Assembly: GCA_035499005.1 (NCBI GenBank)
Contig: DATJZQ010000158.1
Coordinates: 3,364 to 67,363 of the forward strand
Reading direction: 5' to 3'
Origin: Burkholderiales bacterium
Lineage (GTDB): Bacteria; Pseudomonadota; Gammaproteobacteria; Burkholderiales; SHXO01
Length of the DNA: 64,000 bases
Under the pieces are notes generated by a model, which was given only the letters and a program-made list of their open reading frames with translations, was not told the origin of the DNA and ran no database searches. Shown here piece by piece: positions 3,148 to 53,024 of this stretch. Position 1 is the first letter of the stretch. Each line of letters starts with the position of its first letter. Both the position numbers and the translations under genes were made by a program.

Positions 3148-3190
3148 CGCGCGGGAAGCGTGGCGGTGCAGGCTAGGCCGATCGGCCCCG

Positions 3191-5005: not shown

Positions 5006-5281
5006 CTGGCGGGTCGCGGTTCGGGTTGGGGCTCCGAGCGTCGGACGAAGCGAATTCCATTCCAACGGCAGGGCAGGGCACTGCGTCCGATGGTGTGCGC
5101 CGCTCCTCATGAGCGACGGGCGCCATTTCGACGAGGTTCTCGCACTGCGGCAGGCTCGCTCGGGATCGCGCGCGAACCGCGGGAGCGCGCTCAACACCTT
5201 GTGCTGCAACACAAAAGATGGCGCGCCCAAGCCGTGTAACGCGTGCGGTGCTGGGGAGCGGCCTGCGCAGAACCGCCCGGA

Positions 5282-5848: not shown

Positions 5849-5879
5849 AACGAGAACTATCGCGTTGAGGCAGGTTCTG

Positions 5880-6314
5880 TCAGCGCGGCTTGAGATTGCG
5901 GATGTAGACGACGATCTGCTTGATCTGGTCGTCGGTGAACACTCCGCCGAAAGCCGCCATGCGTCCGGGCTTGCCGAACTTGATGCGCTCGAAGATCTGC
6001 TCGTCGGTCTTCTCGGTGCCCATCAGCTGAGGCCCTTTGCCTGCCCTGCGCCCGCCGTCCTCGTGACAGAAGCCGCAGATGTTGCTGAACGCACCGTGAG
6101 CGCTGAACTCCGGCGCCTTCGCCGGCTCAGACTGGTCCGCGGTCTTGGTCTGCGCTGGCTGGCCAGCGTCTTTGGGTGTCTCGTAGCGCGTCATCGGTGT
6201 CGCGGGCTTGGTGTCGTCGGCCGCGGCGCTACAAGCCGCGAGAGCGAGGCACACTGCCGTCGCGGACACGGCGTGGTGGACCGCACTACGCGCTGCCGCC
6301 TGCAGACTCGTCAT
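5880..6314 (-). CDS. Class I c-type cytochrome, probable lipoprotein; likely electron acceptor of the adjacent PQQ dehydrogenase
   Basis: ORF 144 aa. Lipobox-like LALAAC after a signal sequence, single heme motif CGFCH, distal Met in GKPGRMAAF. Lies 93 nt downstream of the PQQ dehydrogenase on the same strand. Confidence 0.8.
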   Translation of the reverse strand: MTSLQAAARSAVHHAVSATAVCLALAACSAAADDTKPATPMTRYETPKDAGQPAQTKTADQSEPAKAPEFSAHGAFSNICGFCHEDGGRRAGKGPQLMGTEKTDEQIFERIKFGKPGRMAAFGGVFTDDQIKQIVVYIRNLKPR

Positions 6315-6407
6315 CTCGAATCTCCTCTGAAGCGATATTTTATCCCACCATAAAAAAGAGGCGGGGAAGATTCCCCGCCTCCGATGTGCAGCGCGTTTGC
6401 GGCGAAA

Positions 6408-8147
6408 TTACGGCAGCGCAAACACTTTGAGGACGCCGGCGTCCTTCGGATAGCTCGCGTACGGTTCGCCGAACCATTCGCCGTAGCCATCGCCGACCAG
6501 GCTGCCCCACCCGGTTACCACCGCAATGTACTGCTTGCCCTTCGCGGTGTACGTGATGATGCCGCCGTTGTGGCCCATGCCGTTCTGGTGACCCCACAGC
6601 AGCTTACCGTTGCTCGCGTCGTAGGCGCGCAGTACTCCATCCGCGCCCGGCACGAACAGCAGGTTGCCGCCGGTGGTGAGCAGGCTGGCGTGCGGCGGTA
6701 CGTCATAGTGGATGCTGAACGCGACCTTGCCGGTGATCGGATCGCGCCCATCGACGTGGCCGTACATGCGCTCTTCGCCCTTGGCCGGCACGAACTTGAA
6801 GTCCGCGCCGATGTTGAGTTGCGCCATCGGCTCCAGCACCGGGGTGGTCTTCACCACCTCGAGGTCGATACACCACTCGTAGCCGACGCGGTAGAACAGC
6901 TTGGTCTTCGGATTGTAGGAACCCGAGTTCCAGCTCAAACCGCCGGCGATGGCCGGGCACAGGTTCTCGTGCTTGCCCTCGCGCAGGTCGCGGCGTCCCA
7001 CCAGCGTGCCGTCGTCCTTGATGGTCTGAACGAAGTTGATGTTCTTGACGAACGGCCAGACCTTCTGCGGGTTGGCGTTGCGGTCGTACACGAACACGAA
7101 GCCGCCCTTGTTCGGGTGGACCACGTACTTCTTGCCGCCCTGGTCGATGAACATGAACTCGCCCATCGCGCTGTCGAAGTCCCACGCGTCATGCGGCAGC
7201 TCCTGCCAATAGCCCTTGAGCTTGCCGGTGTCGGGATCGAGCAGCACGACCGAGGTGGTGTACAGGTTCACGCCGGGCCGCGGGCCGTTGTTCTGCCAGT
7301 CGGGACCGGCCCAGTCGTACAGAGGTGCCGGGTTGCCGGTTCCCCACCACACGGAGTTGGTCTCTGGATCGTACGAGCCCGCCATCCAGCCGCCCCCGCC
7401 GCCCGTCTTCCACGAGTCGCCGCCCCAGGTGTTGCGCGAATCCCCGTTGTCCTCATTGCCACCCACCGTGAAGAACTGCCACACCTGCTGGCCGCTCTTG
7501 GCGTCGACGCCGAAGATGGGACCGCGATAGGGCCACTCGCCGCCCTGGGCGCCGATGATCACCTTGTCCTTGACCACCAGCGGAGCGCCGGTGAAGCCCA
7601 CAGTCAGCTTCTCGGAGTTGATCAGCTTCGTTTCCCAGTTGAGCTTGCCGGTCTTCGCGTCGACCGCGACCAGCTTGCCGTCCAGGGTGCCCATGTAGAT
7701 GTTGCCGTAACCCGCTGCGATGCCGCGGTTATAGGGCGAGTGGGTCTGCTTGGCGACCAGATCTTCGTTGAGCTTCTGCTTGTAGGTCCACAGCATCTGC
7801 CCGGTCGCCCCGTCCAGCGCGTAGAGCTGGTTGTACGAGCTCGTGTAGTAGACCACGCCGTCGATGGCCAGGGGGAAGCTCTGCAGCCCACGATAGGCGC
7901 GCGAGGCGACGTGCGACCAGGCCTCCTGCAGCCGTCCCACGTTCGCGGTGTTGATCTGATCGAGCGCGCTGTAATGCCACGACTTGTAGGTGCCGTGATA
8001 CATCATCCAGTTGCCCGGCTCGCCCGCCGCATTCAACAGACGATCGTAAGTCACGTCGGCGGCACCGGCCTGCGCTGCGACGCAGGCGAACGCCGCTGCC
8101 GCAACGGCCTTGACGCCGCCGGCAACCTGGTTCTTCCATCGTTTCAT
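6408..8147 (-). CDS. PQQ-dependent dehydrogenase, methanol/ethanol family (8-bladed propeller quinoprotein)
   Basis: ORF 579 aa with signal peptide. Family blocks GAQGGEWPYRGP, TWGGDSWKTGGGGGWMAGSYDPETNSVWWGTGNPAP, LPHDAWDFDS, TTGGNLLFVPGADGVLRAYDASNGKLLW. See findings for DxD and missing Cys-Cys. Confidence 0.92.
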   Translation of the reverse strand: MKRWKNQVAGGVKAVAAAAFACVAAQAGAADVTYDRLLNAAGEPGNWMMYHGTYKSWHYSALDQINTANVGRLQEAWSHVASRAYRGLQSFPLAIDGVVYYTSSYNQLYALDGATGQMLWTYKQKLNEDLVAKQTHSPYNRGIAAGYGNIYMGTLDGKLVAVDAKTGKLNWETKLINSEKLTVGFTGAPLVVKDKVIIGAQGGEWPYRGPIFGVDAKSGQQVWQFFTVGGNEDNGDSRNTWGGDSWKTGGGGGWMAGSYDPETNSVWWGTGNPAPLYDWAGPDWQNNGPRPGVNLYTTSVVLLDPDTGKLKGYWQELPHDAWDFDSAMGEFMFIDQGGKKYVVHPNKGGFVFVYDRNANPQKVWPFVKNINFVQTIKDDGTLVGRRDLREGKHENLCPAIAGGLSWNSGSYNPKTKLFYRVGYEWCIDLEVVKTTPVLEPMAQLNIGADFKFVPAKGEERMYGHVDGRDPITGKVAFSIHYDVPPHASLLTTGGNLLFVPGADGVLRAYDASNGKLLWGHQNGMGHNGGIITYTAKGKQYIAVVTGWGSLVGDGYGEWFGEPYASYPKDAGVLKVFALP

Positions 8148-8376
8148 AAGTCTCTCCCGATATTGAGTCTTCGCACGACAACTGAAATCACTTTTTGTTC
8201 AACTCGGGACTTGCCGTCGGCGCCTTCGGTTTTATGGTTTTGTGCTGCAGGAAAGTGCGCTGCGGAAAATCCGGACGAGACTCTAGTCCCAGTCGCACTC
8301 CTTTGCAAGCGAAGTCGTCGAAGCGGGAGAACCACGCTGTTCTTGGGTCGTCGCACGCCGGCGTTTTCATAGGACA

Positions 8377-8850
8377 ATGAGCGCCTTGACCGTCAGTTTT
8401 CAAGCAAGGCTAAGCGCGTTGGCAACCATCCGAGTCACCCCGGTGCTCGCTCTGGACGAGCGCGATCTGCAGGAGACCTTCGTGCGTTCGCCCGGACCGG
8501 GTGGACAGAACGTCAATAAGGTTTCCACCGCGGTGCAGCTGCGCTTCGCGCTGGAACAGAGCGCGGACCTGACGGCGGAGGTTCGGCGCAGGCTCCGCGC
8601 GTTGGCAGGCCGGCGCGTCACGGCGGACGGATGGCTCGTCATCGAGGCTAACCGCTTCCGCAGCCAGGCGCGCAACCGGGAAGACGCGCGCGCCAGGCTG
8701 GTCGAGCTCGTACGCAAGGCTGCGCACCCGCCCAAGCCGCGTCGCCCCACCCGGCCCAGCGTGGCATCCAAGGAGCGCCGGCTGCGGGACAAGCGCGCCC
8801 GCGCTCGCACCAAGTTGGCGCGCGGACGGAGTGCTCTGGATCAGGGCTAG
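8377..8850 (+). CDS. arfB: Alternative ribosome-rescue factor ArfB (peptidyl-tRNA hydrolase, GGQ family)
   Basis: ORF 157 aa. GPGGQNVNKVSTAVQLRF GGQ motif plus basic C-terminal tail RRPTRPSVASKERRLRDKRARARTK. True start may be the in-frame TTG at 8419 (MATIRVTPV...). Confidence 0.85.
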   Translation: MSALTVSFQARLSALATIRVTPVLALDERDLQETFVRSPGPGGQNVNKVSTAVQLRFALEQSADLTAEVRRRLRALAGRRVTADGWLVIEANRFRSQARNREDARARLVELVRKAAHPPKPRRPTRPSVASKERRLRDKRARARTKLARGRSALDQG

Positions 8851-8884
8851 AACCCGCGTTGCAGCAGCTGTGCTACGCACCGCT

Positions 8885-9370
8885 TCATCGGTGCTCGGGG
8901 AGAATGCGCTGAAGCAAGGCGACCAGCGTCTCGCGCTCCGCGGCAGTCAGATTGCTGACCAGGCGCTTCTCATGGCGCGCGACCCGCTGTTTCAGCCTCT
9001 TCAAAAGTGCCGTGCCGGCGGCCGTCAGCGAAATACCGTTCACACGGCGATCCTCGACTGAGGCGCGGCGCGCCACCAGCCCGCGCGCCTCGAGCTTGTC
9101 CAGCGCCGGCACCAGGCTGGAGCGGTCGAGGCGGGCCGCGTTTGCCAGCTCGGTCTGCTTCAGGCCCGGATTGGCTTCGATGATGACCAGCATGCCGAAC
9201 AGGCCCGGGCTCATATCGAGCTCACCCATCGCCGCGGCGAAATCGTCGAAGATGGCGCGCTGCGCCAGGCGCAGATGGTAGCCGAGCAAACCCGGCAGCA
9301 GGCCGAGCTTGGCGCCCCCGGCGGCAGAGGCCGCGAGCGGACGAGCTTTGCGCCTAGGCGTTTCCGACAT
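8885..9370 (-). CDS. MarR-family transcriptional regulator
   Basis: ORF 161 aa. Winged-helix pattern typical of MarR (LKQTELANAARLDRSSLVPALDKLEARGLVARRASVEDRRVNGISLTAAG). Divergent from the catabolic operon starting at 9477. Confidence 0.85.
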   Translation of the reverse strand: MSETPRRKARPLAASAAGGAKLGLLPGLLGYHLRLAQRAIFDDFAAAMGELDMSPGLFGMLVIIEANPGLKQTELANAARLDRSSLVPALDKLEARGLVARRASVEDRRVNGISLTAAGTALLKRLKQRVARHEKRLVSNLTAAERETLVALLQRILPEHR

Positions 9371-9382
9371 CCGGTGTTTTGT

Positions 9383-9412
9383 TTGACATCCAACAATTGG
9401 AGGTGTTACTTT
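9383..9412 (+). promoter_or_regulatory. Candidate sigma-70 promoter (TTGACA-N18-TACTTT) with embedded palindrome TCCAA-N3-TTGGA (9389-9401), possible MarR operator
   Basis: Read directly in the 106-bp marR/reductase divergent spacer. Perfect -35 hexamer at 9383-9388, weak -10 at 9407-9412, 13-bp inverted repeat between them. Confidence 0.35.
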
Positions 9413-9476
9413 GTTTCATCCTAGCGGAAATCGCCGCCGCTGACTATCGTGTCTTCCTGATCACCCTCGCAGCGCC

Positions 9477-10535
9477 ATGACTTGGACCATCACCCTGGCC
9501 GGCGATCCGCAGAGCGCACCAGCGGAGGATGGCGAAACCGTGCTGGACGCGCTGCTGCGCCACGGCGTAGGGTTCGCTTACAGCTGCCAGTCGGGCAACT
9601 GCGGCACCTGCAAGTGCGAATACGTCGCGGGCGACATCCTGGAGCTCGAGTACTCGGAGCATGCGCTGTCAGCGGCCGAGCGCAGCCGCGGTGTGATCCT
9701 CGCCTGCCGGACGCAGGTGTGGGGCGACGTCGAGATCCGCCGCCTCACGGCCGAGGACTTCGTGATGCATCCCTCGCGAGTGATGCAATGCAGGGTGGCG
9801 GAGATGAGCTTCGCAACGCACGATGTGCTGCGGCTGCGGCTCGCGATCGAGTCGGGCGGTCCTTACACGTTTTCCGCCGGACAGTTCGCCAAGCTCGAGT
9901 TCGGCTTCGCCCCGAATGTCCCGCGCGACTATTCAATGGCCAATCGGCCGGACGATGCGATGCTGGAGTTTCACATCCGCTGCATGGCCGGCGGGGTGAG
10001 CAGCCATCTTCCGGCGCAGCTCAGGGTGGGCGATCCGGTGCGCGTCTCAGGTCCGTTCGGCACGTCGTATCTGCGCGAACAGCACCCCGGACCGCTGATC
10101 GCCGTCGCGGGCGGCACCGGCCTCGCCCCGATCCGCTCCATCATCGCCGCCGCGCTCGCCAAGGGTATGGTGCAGCCGCTTCACCTCTACTTCGGCGTGC
10201 GCGCAGAGCGCGACGTGTATGGCGAGGCGGAATTGCGCGCATGGCAGGCCCAGCATCCGCAGCTGAAAGCGCACGTGGTGCTGTCCGATCAGCCGCAGCC
10301 CGGTGACGTGCACGAGACCGCCGCCACTCCGGCGCGGCGCTACGGCCTGGTGACGGACGCTGTGCGCGGTGATTTCGCCAGCTTTGCCGGGTTTCAGGCC
10401 TATCTCGCCGGGCCGCCGGCGATGGTGGACGCCGCCACGGAGCTGCTGCGCGCGGGCGGGATTGCGGCGCGCGACATCCACGCGGACGCCTTCTACAGAG
10501 CCATCGACCAGACAGCGTCGGGGGCGGTGGCATGA
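9477..10535 (+). CDS. Ferredoxin-NAD(P)H oxidoreductase: N-terminal plant-type [2Fe-2S] + FNR-like FAD/NAD domains (oxygenase reductase component)
   Basis: ORF 352 aa. CQSGNCGTCKC...ILACR cluster motif, RDYSMAN flavin motif, AVAGGTGLAPIRS NAD(P)-binding motif. Domain order as in NagAa/phenol-hydroxylase-type reductases, opposite to PaaE. Confidence 0.88.
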   Translation: MTWTITLAGDPQSAPAEDGETVLDALLRHGVGFAYSCQSGNCGTCKCEYVAGDILELEYSEHALSAAERSRGVILACRTQVWGDVEIRRLTAEDFVMHPSRVMQCRVAEMSFATHDVLRLRLAIESGGPYTFSAGQFAKLEFGFAPNVPRDYSMANRPDDAMLEFHIRCMAGGVSSHLPAQLRVGDPVRVSGPFGTSYLREQHPGPLIAVAGGTGLAPIRSIIAAALAKGMVQPLHLYFGVRAERDVYGEAELRAWQAQHPQLKAHVVLSDQPQPGDVHETAATPARRYGLVTDAVRGDFASFAGFQAYLAGPPAMVDAATELLRAGGIAARDIHADAFYRAIDQTASGAVA

Positions 10536-11464
10536 GCCGTCCGTTCAGCCTCGAAGGGCAAGTCGCTATCGTGAGCGGGGGCGCGCGCGGCATCGGCTAC
10601 GCCGTCGCGCAAGAGCTGCTCCGGCTCGGCGCGCGCGTGACACTCGTCGATCCGGGCGTCTCGATAGCAGGCGAGGAGGCCGATGCCGACAGCGTGCAAA
10701 CTGCCGCTGCCGCCCTGGGGGCCAACGCGTTGGCTGTGCCTGAAGACATCGCCGCGCCGGGAGCGGCGCAGACGGCGGTGCAGCTGACGCTCGAGCGCTT
10801 CGGCGCGCTGGACATCGTGATCAACAATGCGGCCATTCTGCGCGACGGCTTCATCTTCAAGTCGCAGCGCAGCGATTGGGAGCGCGTCATCCAGACCAAC
10901 CTCACCGGCGCGTGGGCCTTGCTCGCCGCAGCGACGCCGGTCCTGCGCGATGCAGTGAAGAGCGGCCGCGCGCCAGGGCGGATCGTCAACATGACTTCGA
11001 CCGCTGGACTGTACGGCAACTACGCTCAGTCAGCTTATGCGGCGGCAAAGGCGGGTCTGGTCGGGCTCACACGCGCTGTAGCGCTGGACATGGCGCGCTC
11101 CAAGGTGAACTGCAACGCCGTTGCGCCGTTTGCCGCCACGCGCGTGACCGAGTCCATCGCGCCGGCCAACCCGGCGCAACAGGCATACAAGGAGCGCGCG
11201 CTGAAAATCCCGGCCGGCCATGCCGCGCGCCTGGTCGGGTGGCTCTGCTCGCCGGGCTGCGATGTCACCGGCCAGATCTTCGGAGTGCGCGGGCGCGAGG
11301 TGTTTCTGTTTTCCCAGCCGCGGCCCGCAGTACGCGTGCTGACCGCGCCATTGGCGGACCTGACGCCGGAGTCACTTGACGCCGCCATCAGCATCGCGGT
11401 GCAGGATCAGCTGGTCGAGCTCACCTCCGACCTCGAAGCATTCGACAGCGAACCCATCCTCTAG
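10532..11464 (+). CDS. SDR-family oxidoreductase (hydroxyacyl-CoA-dehydrogenase-like, with C-terminal extension)
   Basis: ORF 310 aa. VSGGARGIG cofactor motif, NNAAI, catalytic S...YAAAK. ATGA start/stop overlap with the reductase gene. Confidence 0.85.
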   Translation: MSRPFSLEGQVAIVSGGARGIGYAVAQELLRLGARVTLVDPGVSIAGEEADADSVQTAAAALGANALAVPEDIAAPGAAQTAVQLTLERFGALDIVINNAAILRDGFIFKSQRSDWERVIQTNLTGAWALLAAATPVLRDAVKSGRAPGRIVNMTSTAGLYGNYAQSAYAAAKAGLVGLTRAVALDMARSKVNCNAVAPFAATRVTESIAPANPAQQAYKERALKIPAGHAARLVGWLCSPGCDVTGQIFGVRGREVFLFSQPRPAVRVLTAPLADLTPESLDAAISIAVQDQLVELTSDLEAFDSEPIL

Positions 11465-40249: not shown

Positions 40250-41479
40250 ATGACCTGGTTTGCACTCGTCGCAATCGCCCTGGCGGGCGCTGCCGTGCTG
40301 TTCCTGGTGGTTCCGTTGCTGCGGCCCCGGCGTGTTTCTGCGGCGTCACAGCGCGGGGCGAACATTTCGATTTTCCGGGACCAGGCCGGGGAGCTGGAGC
40401 GCGACCTTCACAGCGGCGCGCTCGGTGCCGCACAGTTCTCTCAAGCGCGAGCCGAGTTGGAGCAGCGCTTGCTCGACGAACTGCCAGGCACTGCACAGAC
40501 CGTTCCCACCGACGTGCGCACTGCGCGCCGTGCGGCATGGATGGTCGCCGTCGGTCTGCCCGTCTGCGCCGCTCTGCTGTATCTGTATCTGGGCAACCCG
40601 GCGGCGCTTACGGCGCCCAAGCGCGGCGCGCCCGAAGCGCCATCGATCACGGCCGAGCAGTTCCGCGACATGACGGAGAAGCTCGCATCACGGCTGGAAA
40701 AGCAGCCCAACGACCCTGTGGGCTGGATGATGCTCGGGCGCGCCTACAAAGCGTTGGAGCGCTACACAGACGCTGTCCACGCGCTGCAGCAGGCGGAGAA
40801 GCTGGAACCGCGCAACGCCGATATTCTCGTGGAGTACGCCGAGGCTCTGGCGCTGGAGCGTGGCCGTACTCTCGAAGGCGAACCCACGCGCTTGCTGGAG
40901 CGTGCGTTGCAGATTGCGCCCGATAACGAGAAGGCACTGACCTTGGCCGGTGCCGCCGCTTTCGGGCGCAACGATTACGCAGGCGCTGTACGCTATTGGC
41001 AGCGGCTGGTAGCCAAGCTGCCGGCGGACTCCGAGCTGGCGCACGCGCTGTCCACTGGAATCGCGGAAGCCAAAGCGCGCTCCGCGGGAAGAGCGCCGGC
41101 GGCACCGAGCACGGCGCAGCGCGAGGCCGGCGCATCTAGAACCGTGCGTGGGACCGTACGGCTGTCGCCTGCCCTTGCCACACGAGTTTCCCCTGAAGAC
41201 GCGCTGTTCGTCTTTGCGCGCGCGGCCGAAGGCCCAAAGATGCCGCTCGCGGTGCTCAAACGACGGGTGAAGGATTTGCCGCTCGCCTTCGAGCTGAACG
41301 ACAGCATGGCGATGACGCCAGGCCTCGAGCTCTCTTCCTTCCCTCGCGTGGTCGTCGGCGCCCGCATCTCCAAATCCGGCAGCGCGCTAGCGCAGGCGGG
41401 TGACCTGCAGGGCCAGAGTCAGGTGGTCGCGCCCGGCGCGAAAGGCGTGCTCGTCACGATCGACAGCGCCAGTCCATGA
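40250..41479 (+). CDS. ccmI: Cytochrome c-type biogenesis TPR protein CcmI
   Basis: ORF 409 aa. N-terminal TM pair, TPR repeats (GWMMLGRAYKALERYTDAVHALQQAEKLEP...). Last gene of ccm order. Confidence 0.85.
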   Translation: MTWFALVAIALAGAAVLFLVVPLLRPRRVSAASQRGANISIFRDQAGELERDLHSGALGAAQFSQARAELEQRLLDELPGTAQTVPTDVRTARRAAWMVAVGLPVCAALLYLYLGNPAALTAPKRGAPEAPSITAEQFRDMTEKLASRLEKQPNDPVGWMMLGRAYKALERYTDAVHALQQAEKLEPRNADILVEYAEALALERGRTLEGEPTRLLERALQIAPDNEKALTLAGAAAFGRNDYAGAVRYWQRLVAKLPADSELAHALSTGIAEAKARSAGRAPAAPSTAQREAGASRTVRGTVRLSPALATRVSPEDALFVFARAAEGPKMPLAVLKRRVKDLPLAFELNDSMAMTPGLELSSFPRVVVGARISKSGSALAQAGDLQGQSQVVAPGAKGVLVTIDSASP

Positions 41480-42519
41480 CGCCGCGGATGATCCGAGCCG
41501 CTTCACGCTTTGCGGTGTGCCTGGCCCTGGCGCTGTGTTGGGTTGTCAGCGCTGGCGCCCAGACCGCCGAGGACGGCGCCCGGCTTCGGCCCGAGATCGA
41601 GAAGTTCATCGCCTACATGGCGCAGACGCACGCCTTCAACCCGCGTGAGCTGCGTGTGCTGTTCGCCAAGGTGCAGCCCAGCCAGGACGTGACGCGGGCG
41701 ATGAGCTCACCGTCCACGGCAAAGCCGTGGTACGAGTTCAAGCCCCTGTTCGTGGATCAGGCGCGCATCAACGGTGGCGTCAAGTTCTGGAACGAGAACG
41801 CAGAGGTACTGACTCAGGCGCGGATGGAGTTCGGGGTGCCGGAAGCGATCGTGGTCGCGTTGCTCGGCGTCGAGACGCGCTATGGCCGCAACGCCGGCGG
41901 CTTCCGCGTGCTGGACACGCTCTCCACGCTGGCGTTCGACTGGCCTTCGCGGCGCGATTTTTTTCGTGGCCAGCTCGAGCAGTTCCTGCTGCTCGCGCGC
42001 GAGCAAGGCTGGGATCCGCTCGCGATCAAGGGATCGTTCGCGGGGGCGTTGGGCATGCCGCAATTTCTGCCCGGAAGCTACCGCAAGTACGCGATCGACT
42101 ACGATCGCGACGGACGTATCGATCTGTGGCGCAACCCAGCGGACGTGATCGGGAGCGTAGCAAGCTACCTCAAGGAGTTCGGCTGGAAGGACGGGGAACC
42201 CGTCGTGGCGCCAGCCCGGGTCGCCACACCCGAGTGGCAGGCGCTGCTCGACCTCGGGCTCAAGCCCTCGCTCACGCTCGAGCAGTGGAAGGTGCGCGGC
42301 GTGGACAGCTTGCAGGAGCTGCCGACCGCGTTGTCGGCCTGCCTGTTTTCCATCGATCTGGCGGGCGGAGCCGAGTTCTGGTTCGGATTCGACAACTTTT
42401 ACGCGCTGCTGCAATACAACCGCAGCCGCAATTACGCCATGGCGATCGTCGAGCTGGCGCGCGAGATCGCCCTAGAGCGCGACAGGCTGGCGCGGGCTGC
42501 GGTGCCGCATGTAGAGTGA
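41476..42519 (+). CDS. mltB: Lytic murein transglycosylase B
   Basis: ORF 347 aa. LGVETRYGRNAG, GALGMPQFLPGSYRKYAIDYDRDGRIDLW blocks. ATGA overlap with ccmI stop. Confidence 0.9.
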   Translation: MTPRMIRAASRFAVCLALALCWVVSAGAQTAEDGARLRPEIEKFIAYMAQTHAFNPRELRVLFAKVQPSQDVTRAMSSPSTAKPWYEFKPLFVDQARINGGVKFWNENAEVLTQARMEFGVPEAIVVALLGVETRYGRNAGGFRVLDTLSTLAFDWPSRRDFFRGQLEQFLLLAREQGWDPLAIKGSFAGALGMPQFLPGSYRKYAIDYDRDGRIDLWRNPADVIGSVASYLKEFGWKDGEPVVAPARVATPEWQALLDLGLKPSLTLEQWKVRGVDSLQELPTALSACLFSIDLAGGAEFWFGFDNFYALLQYNRSRNYAMAIVELAREIALERDRLARAAVPHVE

Positions 42520-42563
42520 ACGTTGGCGGTACGCCGAGCGTCGCGCCCAGCAGCGTGCGCAGC

Positions 42564-43298
42564 TCAGTTCATCAGGCTGGCGGCGCCGCAGTTGTCCGAG
42601 CCGTTGGCTTCGATCCAGGCCGCTGCGGCGGAATCCGAGTCGGTGCAGCCGTTCGGCGTCCCGCCGATCGGCGGAGCCGCTCCGGCGGCCGCGTAGGTCG
42701 AAAATCGCACCTTGCCGCTGCCCGGCAGACCGTCGTCGGTCTTGCGGTCGACCTCCGCGAGCACCACCGCCGGCACGTAGTTTCCAGTCTTGATGTTGTT
42801 GCGCGAGACGGCGTTCCCGCTGTAACCCCAGATGTTGTCCGTCACCACCTCCATATAGCCTCCGAACACGCTGCTTGGCGTGTTGTCGGGGGCGGGCGTT
42901 GTCGTAGCGGGGCTCGCCATCCGGTACTGACCGTTGATGAAGCCGGCGCTGCTCAGGTGCTGCCAGGCCAGAATTTCCTCGTGCAGCGCGCCGCCGGTGC
43001 CCCGCTCGATGCGGCCGTTACCGTTCCCGTTCAAACAGGGGGAAGGCCCGCAGTCGATGTTCGTGCTGGCGTTGGGGTAGTCGCCCGGGAGCCCCCGGAA
43101 GCGGTCTTGAAAGGCCAGGAACGCAGACTCGGCGGCGCCCTGCTGCGCGATGATGTCGCGAACGCGCGCGTTCTGCACAAGCTCGCGCCCTTGGAGAACG
43201 ACCTGGACGAGCAGTCCGAGCATGACCAGGACGACCGCCGCCTCCACCAGGGTGAGTCCGTGATTGGCTGAAGGACGAAGGGAACGACGGGGATGCAT
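42564..43298 (-). CDS. Prepilin-type N-terminal cleavage/methylation-domain protein, large type IV pilin-like (244 aa)
   Basis: ORF 42564..43415 trimmed to ATG (complement of 43296-43298), 5 nt after GGGAGGAG. Leader MHPRRSLRPSANHG followed by LTLVEAAVVLVMLGLLVQVVL (Glu at +5). C-terminal Cys pair CTDSDSAAAAWIEANGSDNC resembling a pilin D-region. Confidence 0.8.
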   Translation of the reverse strand: MHPRRSLRPSANHGLTLVEAAVVLVMLGLLVQVVLQGRELVQNARVRDIIAQQGAAESAFLAFQDRFRGLPGDYPNASTNIDCGPSPCLNGNGNGRIERGTGGALHEEILAWQHLSSAGFINGQYRMASPATTTPAPDNTPSSVFGGYMEVVTDNIWGYSGNAVSRNNIKTGNYVPAVVLAEVDRKTDDGLPGSGKVRFSTYAAAGAAPPIGGTPNGCTDSDSAAAAWIEANGSDNCGAASLMN

Positions 43299-43410
43299 CG
43301 AGGCTCCTCCCATTGGTCTCCATGTTTGTCGCCGGGCATCCGTGCCCGCGGCGCCCTGTTTGAATTTTTCAGGGGGGCACACGGCCCCATGGCGCCTGAT
43401 TTCGTCCCCA

Positions 43411-43426
43411 GGCAACTGTCGTGCCT
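43411..43426 (-). promoter_or_regulatory. Sigma-54 (RpoN) promoter, near-consensus -24/-12 element
   Basis: Minus strand reads A-GGCACG-ACAG-TTGC-C versus consensus TGGCACG-N4-TTGCW, with correct GG/GC spacing. Lies ~113 nt upstream of the pilin-like ATG. Confidence 0.65.
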
Positions 43427-43809
43427 AACGCACGGTGCGCCCTGGCGTACCCAAGCGGGGGCCCGGGATTGCATCGCGACGGTAGAGTGTTTCGTCGCGA
43501 GCGGCAGTTTCCACAGTCAGCTCGACGCAGGTGGAACCGGCTAACCGATTGAATATAGACGCTTTGAGCTCGCCCACGCCATGCTTGGCGCAACCGACGT
43601 CTTCGGCAGCTGCAGGCGGTGCCGCCGGGCGGGTCAGGGCGGCGTCTGGAGATTCGGGAACTGCCCCTGTAAACGGAGGTGACACTTGGCCGATCAGCGG
43701 CATGCGCAGGTCGGCGTGAGGCGGGGCATCGCGGTCGAATTCTGAGATGCGCGGCCTCGATCCTTGCGGGACCAGGCGGCGATCTGGCGCGCGGGGGGCC
43801 GCCCGCTAC

Positions 43810-44250
43810 CTAGGAACCGACGCTTCGTTGTACGTGCGGCACCCGCTGCGCGCCCAGTTTCATCTCGTGCGACGCGCTTGCCCAGGCGTGCACGCGGGGC
43901 GTTCCGGCGGGCAGCCATCCTCGGCGCGCGATGCGCATCAGGGAAATGACGTTAAACAGCGCGACCACGCAGACGAGCGACGCGAGCGCCTGCGCTATGC
44001 TGACGGTGAGCGCAGCCGACTCAGTGTCCGCCAAAGCCAAGCTCGACAGCGTCTGCGCCGACCTGACACCGGTCTGCGCTGCGTTGTTGCCTTGACTCAA
44101 CATCGCAACGCGCTGCTGCAGCGCTGCGTAGTCCGCTTGCATGCGCTCGGAGCCGTGCTGGAGCTGAATCGACAGCCACAGCAGTGCGATCGAGATCGCA
44201 AACAGTATCGCGGGGACGATGCCGAGAGAGATGAGGTCACGCCTGGACAT
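43810..44250 (-). CDS. Hypothetical membrane protein (two predicted TM helices flanking a Gln/Ala-rich helical segment)
   Basis: ORF 146 aa. TM1 LISLGIVPAILFAISIALLWLSI, TM2 ALASLVCVVALFNVISLMRI. No family recognised. Confidence 0.5.
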   Translation of the reverse strand: MSRRDLISLGIVPAILFAISIALLWLSIQLQHGSERMQADYAALQQRVAMLSQGNNAAQTGVRSAQTLSSLALADTESAALTVSIAQALASLVCVVALFNVISLMRIARRGWLPAGTPRVHAWASASHEMKLGAQRVPHVQRSVGS

Positions 44251-44342
44251 GTTTTTGTGTGAGCTCCGACCTGCGGTTTGGATCAGCAGCGCCCGGTGCA
44301 GCCGCCCGGGAGGCGCAGACCGCGCAGCGGTACGCGATGTTC

Positions 44343-44666
44343 TCAGTTTCCCGGGACGAGCTGGTCCAGGGCGGGCGAATCAACCAGTTCCTGCTCCGCG
44401 CGATAGGCCAGGTCGACCAGAACGCTGGCTTCATCACCGGTGAGCACCAGCGGGTCGCCGTTCAGCGGCACGCGGATCGCGGTGTGCTGCGCCAAGTACT
44501 GGTAGACCTCCGAGCGGAACTCGAACGGTATCGACGTGACGTACACGCGATGCGCACCCGAGGGCACGACGCTGACTCGAACCGACGTGGGGGCGATGCC
44601 GCACGTGATCTCCGCCAGCTTCCTGAGGGCCATGCGCACCGTTACGCTCGTGACAGTGATGCTCAT
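44343..44666 (-). CDS. Hypothetical protein (107 aa)
   Basis: ORF 44343..44678. Start placed at the third Met (MSITVTSVTV...), 6 nt after GGAG. No family recognised. Confidence 0.45.
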   Translation of the reverse strand: MSITVTSVTVRMALRKLAEITCGIAPTSVRVSVVPSGAHRVYVTSIPFEFRSEVYQYLAQHTAIRVPLNGDPLVLTGDEASVLVDLAYRAEQELVDSPALDQLVPGN

Positions 44667-44857
44667 CTCATGCTCCATTGCTCAGCGTTCTGTCGGAGCT
44701 AAGCAAGGGCTTTGCCCGCGCGCCGCACATTGACATTTTCGCAGCAATTGAATGCGGCGCCGCGTGTGTGCCTGCGCGCAGCACGGCCCGCCGTGACTCG
44801 CAGGCACGCGGCGACTCGAGAGCTGCGCTCAAGATTGTTTGTGCGTGCCGTCGCGTT

Positions 44858-47425
44858 TCAGTCGAGCAACTTGCGCAACCGGTAGATGAGCTCGAGCGCC
44901 TGTCGCGGAGTAATCGCGTCGGGATCGGCCTGGCGCAGCTCGTACAATGCCGTTTGCAACGCTGCTGTGGAGGCGTCCGCCGGCGCCGGGGGCCGCTGGA
45001 ACAAGTCCGCCTGCGGACCGTGCGTTTCGTCGCGCGTCTCGAGCTCCGATAGACGCTTCCTCGCTGCGCGTATCACCACAGGAGGCACACCTGCAAGTTG
45101 CGCAACCTGCAGACCATAGCTTTGCGATGCCGGCCCGGCTTCGACGCTGTGCAAGAACACGATGTGGTCCTTGTGCTCGACGGCATCGAGATGCACGTTC
45201 GCGATCTCGCGATACTCCTGGGCTAGCTGCGTCAACTCGAAATAGTGCGTGGCGAACAGCGTGTACGCCTGAGTTTTTTCGGTGAGGTGACGTGCGATAG
45301 CCCAGGCGAGCGCCAGCCCGTCGAAAGTCGAAGTACCCCGACCTACCTCGTCCATCAGCACCAGACTGCTGCGGCTGGCGTTGTGCAGAATGTTAGCCGT
45401 TTCGGTCATCTCCACCATGAACGTAGAGCGCCCCAGCGCCAATTCGTCCGCTGCGCCGATGCGAGTGAAGATGGCGTCGATCGGCCCCAGCCGCGCTGCT
45501 TTGGCGGGCACGAAGCAGCCGCAGTAGGCGAGCAGCACGATCAGCGCGGTCTGACGCATGTACGTGCTCTTGCCGCCCATGTTGGGACCGGTGATGAGCA
45601 GCAGCTTGCGAGACAGCGACAGCCGCAGATCGTTGGGGACGAAGCTCGCGACCTGCTGCTCCACCACTGGGTGGCGGCCCGCCTCGATCTCGATCGTGTC
45701 CTCGTCGGCAAAAGAGGGCCGCGTGTAGCCCAGCGCCAGGGCGCGCTCAGCGAAGGTCGCTAACAGATCGAGCTCAGCCAGCGCTGCCGCAAGCGGCAGC
45801 AGAACCGGTATGGCCTGCGCGAGCTGGTCGAGCAGGCGCTCGTAAAGCAGTTTCTCGCGCGCGACGGCGCGCTCCTGCGCTGACAAGGCTTTGTCTTCGA
45901 AGGCCTTCAACTCCGGCGTGATGAAGCGCTCTGCGTTCTTGAGCGTCTGGCGGCGCCGATAGTCGTGCGGAGCTTTGTCGGCATTGGATCGCGTGAGCTC
46001 GATGTAAAACCCGTGCACGCGGTTGTACTCGACTCTCAAGTTGGGGATACCGGTGCGCGCCCGTTCCCGGCGTTCCAGCTCCAGAAGAAACGCGCCGCAG
46101 TTGTTCTGGATCGCGCGCAGCTCATCGAGCTCGGCATCGTAGCCGTCGGCGATGACGCCGCCTTCGCGCACCGTTGCGCTCGGCTCGGGGCGGATGGCGC
46201 GGGCGAGCAAATCTGCCAGCTCGGGATGCGGCGCGGCATGCCGCGACAGTTCGGTCAGGCGCGGGCTCGAGGGCTCCGAGAAGCTTGCCTGGAGCTCGGG
46301 TAGCAGCTGCAGCGTGGCGTGCAATCCGGTGAGGTCGCGGGGACGGGCGCTTCGCAGTGCGATGCGTGCTGTGATGCGTTCCACGTCGGCTGCTCGCTTC
46401 AACAGGGTGCGCACCGTTTCGAACGGACCCGCTCCGCTCGGTCCAGCCAGTACCTGCACTGCGTCGAGTCTCGCATCCACCGAAGGTCGATCCCGCAATG
46501 GATGATGCAGGACATGGCGCAGGAGGCGGCTGCCCATGCTGCTCGTGCACGTGTCGAGCAACGAGAGCAGGGTTGGCGCAGCCTCCCCGCGCAAAGTCTC
46601 GCTGATTTCGAGGTTGCGGCGGGTCACAGCGTCCAGGCGCAGGAAGTCCGACTGATGCTCAACTCGCAGGGAGCACACATGCGGCAGCGCGCCCCCTTGC
46701 GTGGTGCGGCAGTAGTCGAGGAGCGCCCCGGCAGCGCCGAGCGCTGGCCCCAGAGTCTCGCAGCCGAAGGCGCCCAGGTCGCGCGTCCCAAACTGCCGGC
46801 TGAGATTGCGCACCGCGGAGTCGCGATCGAAGGCCCACGCTGGCAGCCGTCGCTGCGGAACCTCGAGGCCAGGAGGCAGCAGATCATCGCTGCCCTCGGG
46901 CAACAGAATCTCGGCCGGGCCGAGGCGCTCCAGCTCCGACGCCAAGTTGTCAGGCAGGGTTTCGAGCACGCGAAAGTCGCCAGAAGCGAGGCTCAGCCAG
47001 GCGATGCCGACTACCTGCTGCCCGGGAGCGATCGCGAGCAGAGCGTTCTCGCGCTTCTCGTCCAGCAGAGCGGCGTCGCTGAGCGTACCCGGGGTGATGA
47101 TGCGGGTGACCTGCCGTTCGATCGGTCCTTTGGACGTGGCCGGATCGCCGACCTGCTCGCAGATCGCGACCGACTCGCCGATCTTGAGCAGCCGCGCCAC
47201 GTATTGATCGACGGAATGGACCGGGACGCCCGCCATCTTGACCGGTGCGCCAGCGGACGCGCCACGCTGAGTGAGAGTGATGTCGAGGAGCCGCGACGCG
47301 CGCTCCGCGTCATCGTAGAACAGCTCGTAGAAGTCGCCCATGCGATACAGCAGCAGAGTATCCGGATGCTGCGCCTTGATGCGCAGGTACTGCTGCATCA
47401 TGGGCGTGTGATCTGCCTGGTTCAT
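44858..47425 (-). CDS. mutS: DNA mismatch repair protein MutS
   Basis: ORF 855 aa. [30 protein letters not shown], Walker [24 protein letters not shown]-terminal dimerisation region. Confidence 0.96.
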
Positions 47426-49267: not shown

Positions 49268-51076
49268 ATGATTGGTCAAGTGCTGCGGACGCTCCTGGCG
49301 CTGCTGCTGGTAGGCGTGCTCGCCTACCTGTACGTGATGAGTCAGGGGGGCGACCTCAAGCGTCAGACTCAGATCGTCACCGATCTTCGCAGCCTCAAGG
49401 AGATCGACAGCCGCTGGAACCGAGATCTCGCCACTGCACGCAGCGACACATTGGCTACCGAGCCTCGCTCGCGCGAACCGGCGGTCAGGCTGCAGCCTTT
49501 GCTGGGCGATATCGCGGTAGAAACGGCTGCCCTCAACAATCGCGCCCTGGCTACCGGGGTCGAGAGCCTGCGCAGTGCGTTCCTGGAAAAGCAGAAGCGC
49601 GTCGACCAGTTCGAGCAGGCAAACGCTGATCTGCGCGCGGCGGTCAAGGATCTGCTGAATCAGCTGTCTGGCGTTCGCCAGACGGTCGCCCGATTGGCAG
49701 AGGCCGATGCCAAGCAGCGGCAGAAGCTGTCGGCCCTGGACGGGCAGCTGGTGGCGTTGAACGCCGAGCTTTTGCGCCTCTATGTACAACCGGACGACGG
49801 TGCGCGAAAGGCGGTCGAAACGGCCGCCAGCACCCTCGCTGAAGCGGCGCCGCAATACCCCGAAGCCATCCGTACTCCGCTCTCGGGCCTGGTCCCCGCC
49901 GTTGGCGCGCTGCTTAAGCAAGAGCCCGCAGTCACGCAGCTTGGCGAGCAAATCGCGTTGCTGCCCACCTCCCCGCGCATCACATCTCTCAACGACGCCT
50001 ACGATCGAGAGTTCCAGGCCATCGCCGATCAGAAGGAACAGTTTCGCGTCTATCTGGTGTTCTATTCCGCGGCTCTGCTGGTTTTCCTGGCCTATGTCGT
50101 GTACCAGTTGCGCCAGAGCTACGGCAAGATCAACCAGGCCAACGAGGCCCTGAAGGCGGCCAACGAGAATCTCGAGCACAAGGTGCAGGATCGGACGAAG
50201 GAGCTGTCCGAGGCGCTCAAGCACCTGAAGGAATCGGAGCTGATGCTGGTCCAGTCCGAGAAGATGTCTTCGCTCGGTCAGATGGTGGCCGGCATCGCCC
50301 ACGAGATCAACACGCCGCTCGCGTATGTGAAAGCCAGTCTAGCCTCGGTCAAGGAGAGGCTGCCCCAAGTCGAGGGCGTGGTGGCCGAGTGCACGAAACT
50401 GTTAGCCATGCTCGAGCGCGGCGACGTGCCGGATGCGGAGCTTTCGGCGCAATTCACCCGCGTGTCCACGCTGTCCTCCAAGTTCCGCGCCGAATCCGAG
50501 GCTGGCGATCTGCTCCATCTCACCAGCGATGGGCTGCACGGCATCGACCAGATCGCGGAGATCGTCATCAACCTGAAGAACTTCAGCCGCCTGGACCGCA
50601 GCAAGCTGCAGCGCTTCAACCTCAACGAAGGCATCGAGAGCACGTTGGTGATCGCCCGCAACATGATCAAGCACAAGACGGTGCACAAGCAGCTGCGGGA
50701 GATTCCGCTGGTGGAATGCTCGCCATCGCAGATCAATCAGGTGTTCCTCAACCTCGTGACCAATGCAGCACAGGCGACGGATGAGACATCCGGCGAGATC
50801 ACCGTTGCCAGTGCCATCGCCCCAGGCGGACAAGTGCGGGTGGACGTTTCGGACAACGGTCACGGTATTCCCGAGGCTATCCTGTCCAAAATCTTCGACC
50901 CGTTCTTCACGACCAAAGATGTGGGGCAGGGCACCGGGCTTGGCCTGTCCATCGCCTATAAGATCGTCCAGGAGCACGGCGGCCGCATCGAGGTCAAGTC
51001 GAGTGTGGGTCGCGGCACGACCTTCTCGGTATTCCTCCCGGTGAAGGCAGCGCAGCCGCAGGCGCTCGCGGCATGA
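49268..51076 (+). CDS. Sensor histidine kinase (TM - ~240-aa helical extracytoplasmic domain - TM - coiled coil - HisKA - HATPase_c)
   Basis: ORF 602 aa. TM1 [17 protein letters not shown]2 [22 protein letters not shown]-box [13 protein letters not shown] box [11 protein letters not shown] boxes DNGHGIP and GTGLGLS. Confidence 0.9.
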
Positions 51077-51107: not shown

Positions 51108-53024
51108 ATGAACATTCCGGCCGTCATCGGGCGCTACGAGGTGCGTGGCCTGCTCGGAGAAGGCGGCATGGCGACCGTGCTGGAGGGCTGGGACCCAGTC
51201 CTGCATCGGACGCTGGCGATCAAGCTGGTAGACAAGACCAAGCTCGAACAGGAGACGAAGGACGAGGCGCTTAGCCGATTCAAACGCGAGGCGCAGGCGG
51301 CTGCGCGTTTGACCCACGCCAACGTGGTGCAAGTCTACGAGTACGGCGAGGAGGGTGACTTCTGCTTCATCGCCATGGAGCACGTCGCCGGCAAGCCACT
51401 GACGGCTTACCTGAGCGAGGGTCTCAAGTCCGAATTACAGCGGGTGCGCGACATCATTGGCCAGTTGCTGGATGCGCTGGCCTATTCTCATGCGCAGGGC
51501 GTCATCCACCGCGATATCAAACCGGGCAACCTGCTCGTCACGCGCGAGGGCAACATCAAAGTCACCGACTTTGGCATTGCGCGTATCGAGACCTCGAACG
51601 TAACTCAGCATGGCCACATGCTGGGCACGCCTAGCTACATGTCGCCGGAACAGTATCTTGGCGAAACGCCGGACGGCAGAGCCGACTTGTTTGCCGCGGG
51701 AGTTCTCCTGTACGAACTGCTCACCGGCGTCAAACCGTTTGCCGGCGAGAGCAGCGGGCAGATCATGAACAAGATCCTGTATGAGACGGCAGTGGATCCG
51801 TCCCGTCTCAACCCGCTCCTGCCGCCGGCGGTGGACTGGGTAGTGCAAAGGGCGCTGGCCAAGGCGCCCCAGGATCGCTTCGACAATGCCCGCGAATTCA
51901 GCGAGGCGCTGTTCAACGCCATCCCGGATCAGCTCGGCGACGAGGCGTCACCGCGTGCCAGCGCCGGGGCCCCCGCGTCGTCGCCCAGCGCGCCCGGCAT
52001 GCTCAGCAGCGCGCGCAAGCTGCGTTCGCTCGCGCGCAGCAGCGATGCAACGGTGCCAAGCGATGCGATTAGCGAGCTCTCGCCGCTCAACGAAGCGGTG
52101 ATGACTGTTCAGCGCGCTCGCATCCTGTTCGTGGACGACGAGGAGCGCATACTGACAGCGCTGAAGACGATCTTCCGCGGGCGATACCACGTTCTCACTG
52201 CAGCCAACGGCAAAGAGGCTCTGGACTTCATCAGCAAGTTCAAGATCCCGGTGATCGTGAGCGACCAGCGCATGCCGGGAATGCTCGGCGTCGAGCTGCT
52301 GCGTCGTGCGCGCGACATCTCGCCGGACAGCGTGCGCATCCTGCTGACCGGCTATTCCGACCTCGCCTCCATCGTGGGTTCCATCAATGACGGTGAGGTC
52401 TACCGCTTCATCAGCAAGCCCTGGGACAATCAGGAATTGCAGCAGGTGGTTGGCGAAGCGGTTGCGATCGGCCAGCAGCTGCTGGAGCGCAATCGACCCA
52501 GGCAGGCGCCTCCGCCCAAGATAGACGGGGCCATACTCCTGCTGGAGCAGAAGCCGGGGCTGCACGACGCGCTCGGCAAGCTGCTCGGATCGAGCTACGA
52601 GTTGGTGTGCGTGTCGGACATCGATCAGGCGCTGGCCGAGCTCGAGGCGCGCGAAATCGCTCTGTTCATCACCGACATCGACGCCGACTTCGACAACTAC
52701 CTGATCCTGTTCAATCTGCTCAAGCGCAAGTACCCACAGATTCTGGTCCTGGTCGTCACCAGCGCTTCAGACTCGGAGATGGTGATCCACCTTATCAACG
52801 AGGCGCAGATCTACCGCTTCCTGAACAAGCCCGTCAACCTCGGTCTGTTGCAGCAACACTTGAGCTCGGCTATCACGCGCTACGCGGAATATCAGAGCTC
52901 GCCCGAGCTCCTCGAGCGGCACAAGGTCAAAGACACCCCGAAGGCCGAAACGAGCTCGTTCGCCCAGGGGCTGCTCGAGCGGCTCAGATCGTTCAAGAAC
53001 CGCCTCGCAGCCGCCGGCCGGTAG
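51108..53024 (+). CDS. Hanks-type Ser/Thr protein kinase fused to two C-terminal receiver (REC) domains
   Basis: ORF 638 aa. GEGGMATV, AIK, HRDIKPGN, DFGIAR, SYMSPE (aa 7-270). REC1 aa ~338-455 (FVDDEE, VSDQRMPG, LLTGY, ISKPW). REC2 aa ~474-592 (LLLEQK, FITDID, VVTSA, LNKPV). Confidence 0.88.
   Translation: MNIPAVIGRYEVRGLLGEGGMATVLEGWDPVLHRTLAIKLVDKTKLEQETKDEALSRFKREAQAAARLTHANVVQVYEYGEEGDFCFIAMEHVAGKPLTAYLSEGLKSELQRVRDIIGQLLDALAYSHAQGVIHRDIKPGNLLVTREGNIKVTDFGIARIETSNVTQHGHMLGTPSYMSPEQYLGETPDGRADLFAAGVLLYELLTGVKPFAGESSGQIMNKILYETAVDPSRLNPLLPPAVDWVVQRALAKAPQDRFDNAREFSEALFNAIPDQLGDEASPRASAGAPASSPSAPGMLSSARKLRSLARSSDATVPSDAISELSPLNEAVMTVQRARILFVDDEERILTALKTIFRGRYHVLTAANGKEALDFISKFKIPVIVSDQRMPGMLGVELLRRARDISPDSVRILLTGYSDLASIVGSINDGEVYRFISKPWDNQELQQVVGEAVAIGQQLLERNRPRQAPPPKIDGAILLLEQKPGLHDALGKLLGSSYELVCVSDIDQALAELEAREIALFITDIDADFDNYLILFNLLKRKYPQILVLVVTSASDSEMVIHLINEAQIYRFLNKPVNLGLLQQHLSSAITRYAEYQSSPELLERHKVKDTPKAETSSFAQGLLERLRSFKNRLAAAGR

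Follow-up and report, generated by a model that had tools for sequence, protein, structure and literature searches.

Why should a gene for a large prepilin-like protein lie, together with two small genes that match no named family, between the core genes mltB and mutS? The question is raised by a stretch of 64,000 nt (hereafter, the window) from an uncultured soil Burkholderiales bacterium (G+C content, 66%). We propose, with a probability of roughly 0.6, that the three genes are a two-promoter inserted module with an accessory sigma-54-dependent type IV pilin. The gene for the small soluble protein is called sm and that for the small membrane protein tm, and the three genes together are referred to as the cassette. 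The genes and their flanks are as follows.

41476..42519, plus strand: mltB, the left flank, convergent with the pilin gene (TIGR02282 score, 341 bits; cut-off, 281)
42564..43298, minus strand: the pilin (prepilin-like) gene, 244 aa, with a 14-aa leader ending in Gly before LTLVE; mature protein 230 aa, pI 4.7, Cys 83/88 and 218/237
43810..44250, minus strand: tm, a 146-aa inner-membrane protein, pI 11.4, with two transmembrane (TM) segments
44343..44666, minus strand: sm, a 107-aa soluble acidic protein, whose core residues 1-86 are almost invariant
44858..47425, minus strand: mutS, the right flank (TIGR01070, 1098 bits, above the NCBIfam equivalog cut-off)

All three minus-strand genes (sm, tm and the prepilin gene) are present in the open reading frame (ORF) list of the window, and the flanks are MltB and MutS by NCBIfam cut-offs; the picture drawn by a first-pass annotation, in which three genes of no housekeeping function separate two core genes, therefore holds. 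The G+C content at third codon positions of the three ORFs (0.81-0.85) is the same as that of the rest of the genome. In comparisons with orthologues, 43-60% of the third codon positions differed in sm, tm and the pilin gene, as against 7-23% of the first and second positions in sm and the pilin gene and 27-53% in tm. This third-position-biased substitution indicates that all three genes are translated and are under purifying selection, which, judging from these alignments, is strong on sm and the pilin gene and weaker on tm. The start codons adopted here, MSITV for the 107-aa sm and the ATG at 43298 for the pilin gene, are kept in orthologues, the latter behind an invariant GGGAGG.

To place the cassette in its genomic context, metagenome contigs were scanned with MltB, and the neighbouring genes were then mapped. 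Where MltB was at least 90% identical, the cassette was found at the junction (L094, L095, L096, L103, L117, L124 and L003), and the first six of these contigs showed the gene order ccmI-mltB-pilin-tm-sm-mutS, as in the window. L094 and L095 represent essentially the window's own genome, and L003, the nearest relative of the window, is collinear with it at 93.9% nucleotide identity. The junction was empty in six related contigs with MltB 72-80% identical (L098, L100, L101, L105, L106 and L111), in which the stop codons of mltB and mutS are 56-182 bp apart. A 516-aa amidohydrolase-like gene was found instead at the junction of L099; L004 and L009 carry nitrile hydratase genes plus the cassette, whereas the window lineage has the cassette alone; and the junctions of L104, L112 and L113 contain gaps of 1.8-2.1 kb. 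The empty junctions, together with the other cargo, indicate that the 2.3-kb segment is an acquired module at a variable junction, and the synteny comparison that the first-pass annotation had proposed for this segment thus comes out in favour of an insertion. The convergent mltB-mutS junction is a hot spot for cargo, of which the cassette provides a clean natural example.

The same module was found at a second site: in L001 and L005, the pilin-tm-sm order is kept between genes for an alcohol dehydrogenase and a 2-hydroxyacid dehydrogenase, and L006 and L007 have the upstream flank in common with this site. Indeed, wherever a close pilin orthologue (71-97% identity) is present, sm, tm and the pilin gene keep this order, even among entirely different neighbours. 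This constancy of gene order at unrelated genomic sites indicates that the module moved as a unit. A mobile element was considered as the carrier and set aside, because no flanking repeats were found around the cassette, no integrase or transposase ORF in the list fits between mltB and mutS, and the cassette shows no compositional shift, its GC content being equal to that of its surroundings.

The pilin protein has the features of a class III signal peptide: it begins with a basic leader of 14 aa (MHPRRSLRPSANHG) that ends in Gly (position -1) and is followed by LTLVE at positions +1 to +5, with Leu at +1. Glu at +5 is conserved among the homologues, two of which have Asp, and the leader Gly is conserved in the loci with a recognizable leader motif. 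A single hydrophobic segment is present (residues 11-41), and Cys residues occupy positions 83, 88, 218 and 237; when 25 homologues were aligned, C83 and C88 were invariant and C218 and C237 nearly invariant. The prepilin features listed in the first-pass annotation (244 aa, the 14-residue basic leader with Gly, Leu+1, Glu+5, a hydrophobic N-terminal helix and the C-x4-C pair formed by C83 and C88) are thus all found; its C-terminal C-x19-C loop is miscounted, since C218 and C237 form C-x18-C. When PDB sequences were searched with a profile, Neisseria PilE emerged as the best solved relative, a marginal match (E 0.018) that aligns pilin residues 15-82 with PilE residues 1-69, from +1 along the whole alpha-1 helix. 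Neither type IVb pilin structures nor GspG structures were recovered in this search.

The 14-aa leader, Leu+1 and 230-aa mature size do not agree with the features of type IVa pilins (a leader of 5-7 aa, Phe+1 and a mature protein of ~150 aa). Nor does the protein correspond to a type IVb pilin (a leader of 15-30 aa, a non-Phe +1 residue and a dedicated assembly operon), as Leu+1 fits and the 14-aa leader is borderline, but no assembly operon was found at the orthologous cassette loci examined. It had been suggested in the first pass that leader, +1 residue and size lie between types IVa and IVb; the appearance is as described, but a separate class does not follow, since other family members have classical type IVa leaders (5-7 aa, Phe+1). 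Because such leaders are found in most family members, the comparison indicates that the lengthened leader and Leu+1 represent a derived state within a single clade and do not mark an intermediate pilin class.

We retrieved 601 homologues of the window pilin (E <= 0.001), none of which is functionally annotated; their labels are 'hypothetical' or generic pilin names, and the named sources are metagenome-assembled genomes (MAGs) of Burkholderiales. A genome scan yielded 79 family loci, all from uncultured Burkholderiales or Betaproteobacteria, with two or three paralogues in each of several MAGs. The motifs DRFRALPGDY, GNGNGR, IKTGN and DDG are conserved across the family. A type IVa leader of the classical kind is found in most members, as in MKRQQG/FTLIEIAIVLVIIG (the slash marks the end of the leader), and the motif MKRQQG/FTLIE defines the canonical leader. 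The canonical paralogues pass both TIGR02532 and PF07963 (24-26 bits versus 16.3), and the window pilin is 40-53% identical to canonical members over its full length (52.7% to one that passes both models). On the strength of these alignments, we regard the window pilin as a diverged paralogue within a lineage-specific family of large (~230-aa mature) pilins of uncultured Burkholderiales.

The canonical members lie in a gene cluster of their own, at the following loci.

L082, positions 1-10732, and also L022, L025, L030, L058 and L066: canonical pilin cluster

This conserved cluster comprises two to four pilin-like genes together with genes for an ABC-2-like membrane protein of 259 aa, for unknown proteins of 241, 466 and 515 aa and, on the opposite strand, for a multi-TM HATPase_c histidine kinase; directly downstream are kefB and kdsD-kdsC-lptC-lptA-lptB-rpoN. 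It may represent an undescribed pilus-related system, and it is essentially unannotated. In the MAG that contains L003, the canonical cluster is on another contig (L022), which makes the cassette pilin an additional copy at a dispersed site. Paralogues with 56-66% identity to the window pilin occur as solitary genes in varied contexts, and no sm or tm was detected by tblastn beside these intermediate paralogues or the canonical ones. Canonical and cassette members have the same four Cys residues, DRFRALPGDY and GNGNGR, and the same sigma-54-type promoter. Only the canonical members have leaders of 5-7 aa with Phe+1, a promoter ~45 nt from the ATG and a fixed synteny without sm-tm; only the cassette copy has a 14-aa leader, Leu+1, a 5' leader of ~100 nt, the dyad and IHF-like site described below, and movement between genomic sites. 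Sigma-54-driven type IV pilins are already textbook knowledge; what is new here is a large pilin family without functional annotation, with an extra Cys pair and canonical copies beside the rpoN operon, and a relocating offshoot of it, in which the leader and +1 residue have changed, the regulatory region is long and two unknown genes are always present. The cassette may thus be read as a natural example of pilin paralogue diversification.

The next question is how the pilin gene is controlled. The following elements were identified upstream of it.

43411..43426, minus strand: sigma-54-type pilin promoter, aGGCACGACAGTTGCc, with GG at -24 and GC at -12, conserved in seven loci
43305..43311, minus strand: ribosome-binding site (RBS), GGGAGGA, 6 nt upstream of the pilin ATG, with GGGAGG invariant in seven loci
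43299..43400, minus strand: 5' leader of the pilin mRNA, ~100 nt, in which AAAyTCAAA, GGAGACC and a GCCGG...CCGGC hairpin are conserved, the loop of the hairpin being variable
43542..43554, minus strand: IHF-like site, ATTCAATCGGTTA, with one mismatch to WATCAANNNNTTR, between the dyad and the promoter
43688..43702, minus strand: candidate upstream activator site ~275 nt before the promoter, a dyad, TGCCGCTGATCGGCC (orthologues, TGCCG-N5-CGGCA)

Seven orthologous intergenic regions, which for the most part cannot be aligned, share the invariant block GGCAyrACAGTTGCCTG, and the -24/-12 element before the pilin gene (also given as GGCACGACAGTTGC and aGGCACgacagTTGCc) is invariant in them. Across the family, a strong -24/-12 match was found no more than 170 nt upstream of the leader in 54 of 76 loci, compared with 6% expected from the background rate, and in canonical members it lies ~45 nt from the ATG. 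No sigma-70-like promoter was found in the pilin upstream region. The RBS and the near-consensus RpoN promoter reported for the pilin gene in the first pass are accordingly well supported, the former as GGGAGGA and the latter by its invariance in seven loci and its enrichment across the family. The IHF-like block ATTCAAnnGnTTA (ATTCAAnnnnTTA, positions 43554-43542) is also conserved in the seven loci; WATCAANNNNTTR is the sequence that we take to be the IHF consensus. The dyad TGCCG-N5-CGGCA is likewise conserved in all seven within otherwise diverged DNA, and, as far as can be judged from these motifs, the dyad, the bend site and the -24/-12 element make up the usual layout of an activator-dependent sigma-54 promoter. 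A GG-N10-GC promoter recognized by sigma-54, acting with PilR, is an established means of driving major pilin genes (PMC7170775).

Two more copies of the dyad (0 and 1 mismatch) lie inside the coding regions of the pilin gene (42713-42727) and sm (44456-44470), and the 2.3-kb cassette holds 3 of the 13 matches in the window; the copies in coding regions are probably coding coincidences. An RNA element in the 5' leader of the pilin mRNA was also considered and rejected, as only 1 of 17 predicted pairs showed a compensatory change and no Rfam match was obtained in the region.

Upstream of sm, a second set of elements was found, which the first-pass annotation had missed.

44703..44716, minus strand: core of a second sigma-54-type promoter, GGCAAAGCCCTTGC, whose 3' end precedes the sm ATG by 36 nt
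44730..44750, minus strand: candidate regulator-binding block, CAATTGCTGCGAAAATGTCAA, just upstream of the sm promoter

In the context of this promoter (gGGCAAAGCCCTTGCt / gGGCAAagcccTTGCt), GGGCArAGCCCTTGCTTAG is invariant in seven loci. Like the element before the pilin gene, it has GG at -24 and GC at -12, separated by ten bases, in a TGGCAC/TTGCW-like context on the coding strand. The block CAATTGCTGCGAAAATGTCAA is conserved in seven loci with different upstream genes, and CAATTGCT-N6-AATGTCAA may be a regulator-binding sequence. The earlier description of a sigma-54-driven cassette is therefore right as to the type of promoter but not as to a single sigma-54 unit, since there are two conserved promoters. 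The sm stop codon overlaps the tm start in L005 (5154 versus 5151), the two are no more than 6 nt apart in L009, and this overlap or abutment in some orthologues indicates that sm and tm form an operon.

The sm protein (pI 5.2) lacks hydrophobic segments, and its residues 1-86 hardly vary across 25 homologues (mean column identity, 84%), whereas tm is only 35-49% identical in comparisons where the sm core is near invariant. Neither protein scored above Pfam or NCBIfam thresholds, in agreement with the earlier remark that the 107-aa soluble and 146-aa two-TM proteins match nothing recognized, and a profile search with sm found no match among PDB sequences. Structure prediction, also proposed in the first pass, gave an AlphaFold2 model of sm with a mean predicted local distance difference test score (pLDDT) of 84.5 and a predicted template modelling score (pTM) of 0.75, in the order alpha-beta-beta-alpha-beta-alpha; a Foldseek comparison of this model with the PDB returned no solved structure with E below 0.2. 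In tm, two hydrophobic segments (residues 4-32 and 78-109) enclose a conserved loop of ~50 aa and are followed by a variable basic C-terminal tail. The tm homologues form 13 clusters, none of them named, and are known from this cassette alone. An assignment of tm to PspB was rejected, because the TIGR02976 match (16.2 bits versus 51.7) covers only a TM segment and a helical stretch; those to FtsL and DivIC were rejected on the same grounds, as weak matches, well below threshold, to the TM segment and helical stretch.

An exhaustive HMMER search recovered 60 remote representatives of sm, mostly of 90-125 aa. The remote genes (93-109 aa) stand alone in unrelated contexts: in L083, the homologue precedes the gene for a PAS-rich signalling protein, for which the Pfam matches listed are PAS domains; in L091, it adjoins the gene for a Gly-zipper protein; and in L093, it adjoins a PilX-domain gene, with a related contig placing it near GGDEF-EAL genes. 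A near-perfect TGGCAG/A-N5/6-TTGCT was present 47-52 nt before the ATG in all five independent remote sm loci with intact upstream DNA, including the following sites.

L083, 7930-8000: remote sm promoter site
L086, 6085-6137: remote sm promoter site
L091, 5945-6000: remote sm promoter site
L093, 1355-1409: remote sm promoter site

A sixth remote locus (L089/L090) had no -24/-12 match, and a transposase gene lies immediately upstream of sm there. On this comparative evidence, the sm of the cassette is one branch of a wider family of small genes carrying sigma-54 promoters, a branch that has become fixed beside tm and the pilin gene; because the family consists of stand-alone genes, sm is not a pilin-specific factor by descent. 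A new small-protein family thus emerges, with sigma-54 promoters and a confidently predicted fold without a solved relative, and it is the most interesting element of the locus.

If the pilin is accessory, its assembly would depend on genes elsewhere. No assembly genes were found beside the cassette in the orthologous loci examined gene by gene. The earlier statement that none is nearby stands for the immediate neighbourhood of the cassette but not for the window, which holds an extension ATPase gene 38 kb away.

3191-5230, minus strand: TfpB-type extension ATPase (NF053534, 917 bits versus 850), with T2SSE and MshEN domains
1-3210, minus strand: MASE1-PAS-GAF-PAS-GGDEF diguanylate cyclase, directly upstream of the ATPase gene

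The ATPase gene is solitary, without pilC. Its pairing with the diguanylate cyclase hints at control of pilus extension by cyclic di-GMP. The type IVa pili of Acinetobacter baylyi are served by TfpB as a second extension motor, in addition to PilB (PMC8213720). The presence of a TfpB-type ATPase in the window therefore makes it likely, as far as gene content can tell, that type IVa machinery capable of handling the pilin is present in the organism. The proposal of the first-pass annotation that an accessory pilin is served by machinery elsewhere gains support from the paralogue relationship, from the absence of assembly genes at orthologous loci and from the canonical cluster elsewhere in the MAG of the nearest relative.

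The mechanism that we consider can be set out as follows. An enhancer-binding activator encoded elsewhere would probably bind the TGCCG-N5-CGGCA dyad and, through a DNA bend at the IHF-like site, reach the sigma-54 promoter, which, once opened, would yield high levels of pilin mRNA with a long leader; the pilin gene would thereby be controlled in the manner of PilR-dependent pilA genes. The prepilin would enter the inner membrane and be cut after Gly14 by the prepilin peptidase of the cell, and the processed pilin would be polymerized by type IVa machinery encoded elsewhere, in which case it could be an alternative major subunit or could join filaments of the canonical paralogues. As sm-tm has its own sigma-54 promoter, it would be switched on with, or in parallel to, the pilin gene. 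The inner-membrane tm and the cytoplasmic sm may be an accessory pair that tunes production or use of the pilin, and we infer such a role in control or handling because the genes are always linked, a membrane protein is paired with a cytoplasmic one and sm is extremely conserved.

Several points weigh against an accessory sigma-54-dependent type IV pilin. First, the pilin fails the curated N-methylation models, with 15.6 bits for PF07963 against a cut-off of 21.2 and no hit for TIGR02532, and an AlphaFold2 model built from a 25-sequence alignment reached a pLDDT of only 45.6, with helix 17-67 the only part of any confidence; a pilin fold of the C-terminal 170 residues is therefore putative. 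Second, within the window, the promoter core GGCA-N6-TTGC has 4 matches (3.6 expected), which is not above chance, and the dyad pattern has 13 (8.6 expected), which is not significant; as neither motif exceeds chance in the window alone, the case for both rests on their conservation. Third, the window contains no prepilin peptidase, platform protein or secretin, whose presence in the genome is assumed, and the GAFTGA motif is absent from all six of its frames, in line with the first-pass observation that no sigma-54 activator is encoded there; no activator was found among the called genes beside the L001 cassette either. Fourth, the remote sm homologues are mostly without any pilin gene, which weakens a pilin-specific role for sm. 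Finally, the pilin family is unstudied in every member.

Among the alternatives, the most credible, although we consider it unlikely, is that the protein serves as a minor or priming pilin, or as a cap, for filaments of the canonical paralogues. Several paralogues per genome, a canonical cluster that already has two to four pilin-like genes, and the lack of machinery beside the cassette gene would all be expected of such a subunit. The activator-type promoter, long upstream region and strong RBS are, however, typical of highly expressed major pilins, and the protein has kept the full-length architecture and all four Cys residues of canonical members.

It is improbable that the protein is a regulatory or decoy pilin, retained in the inner membrane and signalling to a PilS-like kinase or to tm and sm. 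PilS senses membrane pilin via the N-terminal helix, the canonical cluster contains a multi-TM histidine kinase, and a membrane protein and a cytoplasmic protein, controlled by the same type of promoter, accompany the pilin in the cassette. Nevertheless, a large, conserved, Cys-containing periplasmic domain under purifying selection exceeds the need of a membrane signal, and no kinase or regulator is linked to the cassette.

A GspG-like pseudopilin of type II secretion is very improbable: a weak N-terminal match to TIGR01710 (E 9e-4) and the homologue name PulG in some JGI records speak for it, but the match, at 19.3 bits, falls far short of the cut-off (88.85) and is confined to the N-terminal 40 residues, that is, the shared helix, no gsp genes occur in any locus examined, the 230-aa mature size and terminal Cys pair do not fit, and the best solved relative is PilE. 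Equally hard to credit is a gene order due to chance or decay, with sm-tm and the pilin gene as unrelated neighbours or remnants, because, even though sm homologues stand alone elsewhere and there are two separate promoters, all close orthologues keep the three-gene order, which is seen in two or more genomic contexts unrelated to each other, and all three genes show third-position-biased substitution.

Among known systems, the window pilin resembles the sigma-54/PilR type IVa pilins, such as Pseudomonas aeruginosa pilA, Xanthomonas oryzae pilAX and Neisseria pilE, in its basic leader, Gly-1, Glu+5, alpha-1 helix and C-terminal Cys pair, and its gene resembles theirs in the GG-N10-GC promoter with distant upstream sites (PMC7170775); the match to PilE along the whole alpha-1 helix points the same way. 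Unlike type IVa major pilins, its mature form is ~80 aa longer, with an extra invariant C-x4-C, a 14-aa leader and Leu+1, and it fails the N-methylation models; unlike their genes, the window gene is not beside pilBCD or pilSR and has two unknown companions. A longer leader, a non-Phe +1 residue and a large mature protein are shared with the type IVb pilins TcpA and BfpA, from which the window pilin differs in belonging to a family with type IVa leaders, in lacking a tcp- or bfp-like operon and in having no match to them among PDB sequences.

For sm-tm, two working analogies may be considered. PspA/B/C form a sigma-54-controlled membrane/cytoplasm pair that modulates a sigma-54 activator. CpiA of Acinetobacter baylyi is a small cytoplasmic inhibitor of the PilB motor, which establishes that such small regulators exist (PMC8213720). 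In both cases, control of a pilus motor or a sigma-54 activator falls to a small cytoplasmic protein, acting alone or with a small membrane partner, although no sequence or fold relationship to sm-tm was found. By extension, sm-tm could be a novel sigma-54-controlled control module for type IV filaments, in which sm, a new cytoplasmic family (~95-125 aa) with the promoter TGGCAG-N5-CTTGCT, binds a conserved partner (a pilus motor ATPase, a platform protein or an enhancer-binding activator) and tm couples this binding to the presence of the cassette pilin in the membrane, the near-invariance of sm being then a consequence of the binding; we offer this as a speculation and consider it doubtful. 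If sm and tm do control the use of the pilin, they would add a new layer of pilus regulation.

Apart from the cassette, an unusual signalling pair was noted a few kb beyond mutS, in which a DAHL-domain histidine kinase precedes a Ser/Thr kinase fused to a receiver domain.

49268-51076, plus strand: DAHL-domain histidine kinase
51108-53024, plus strand: Ser/Thr protein kinase fused to a response-regulator receiver domain

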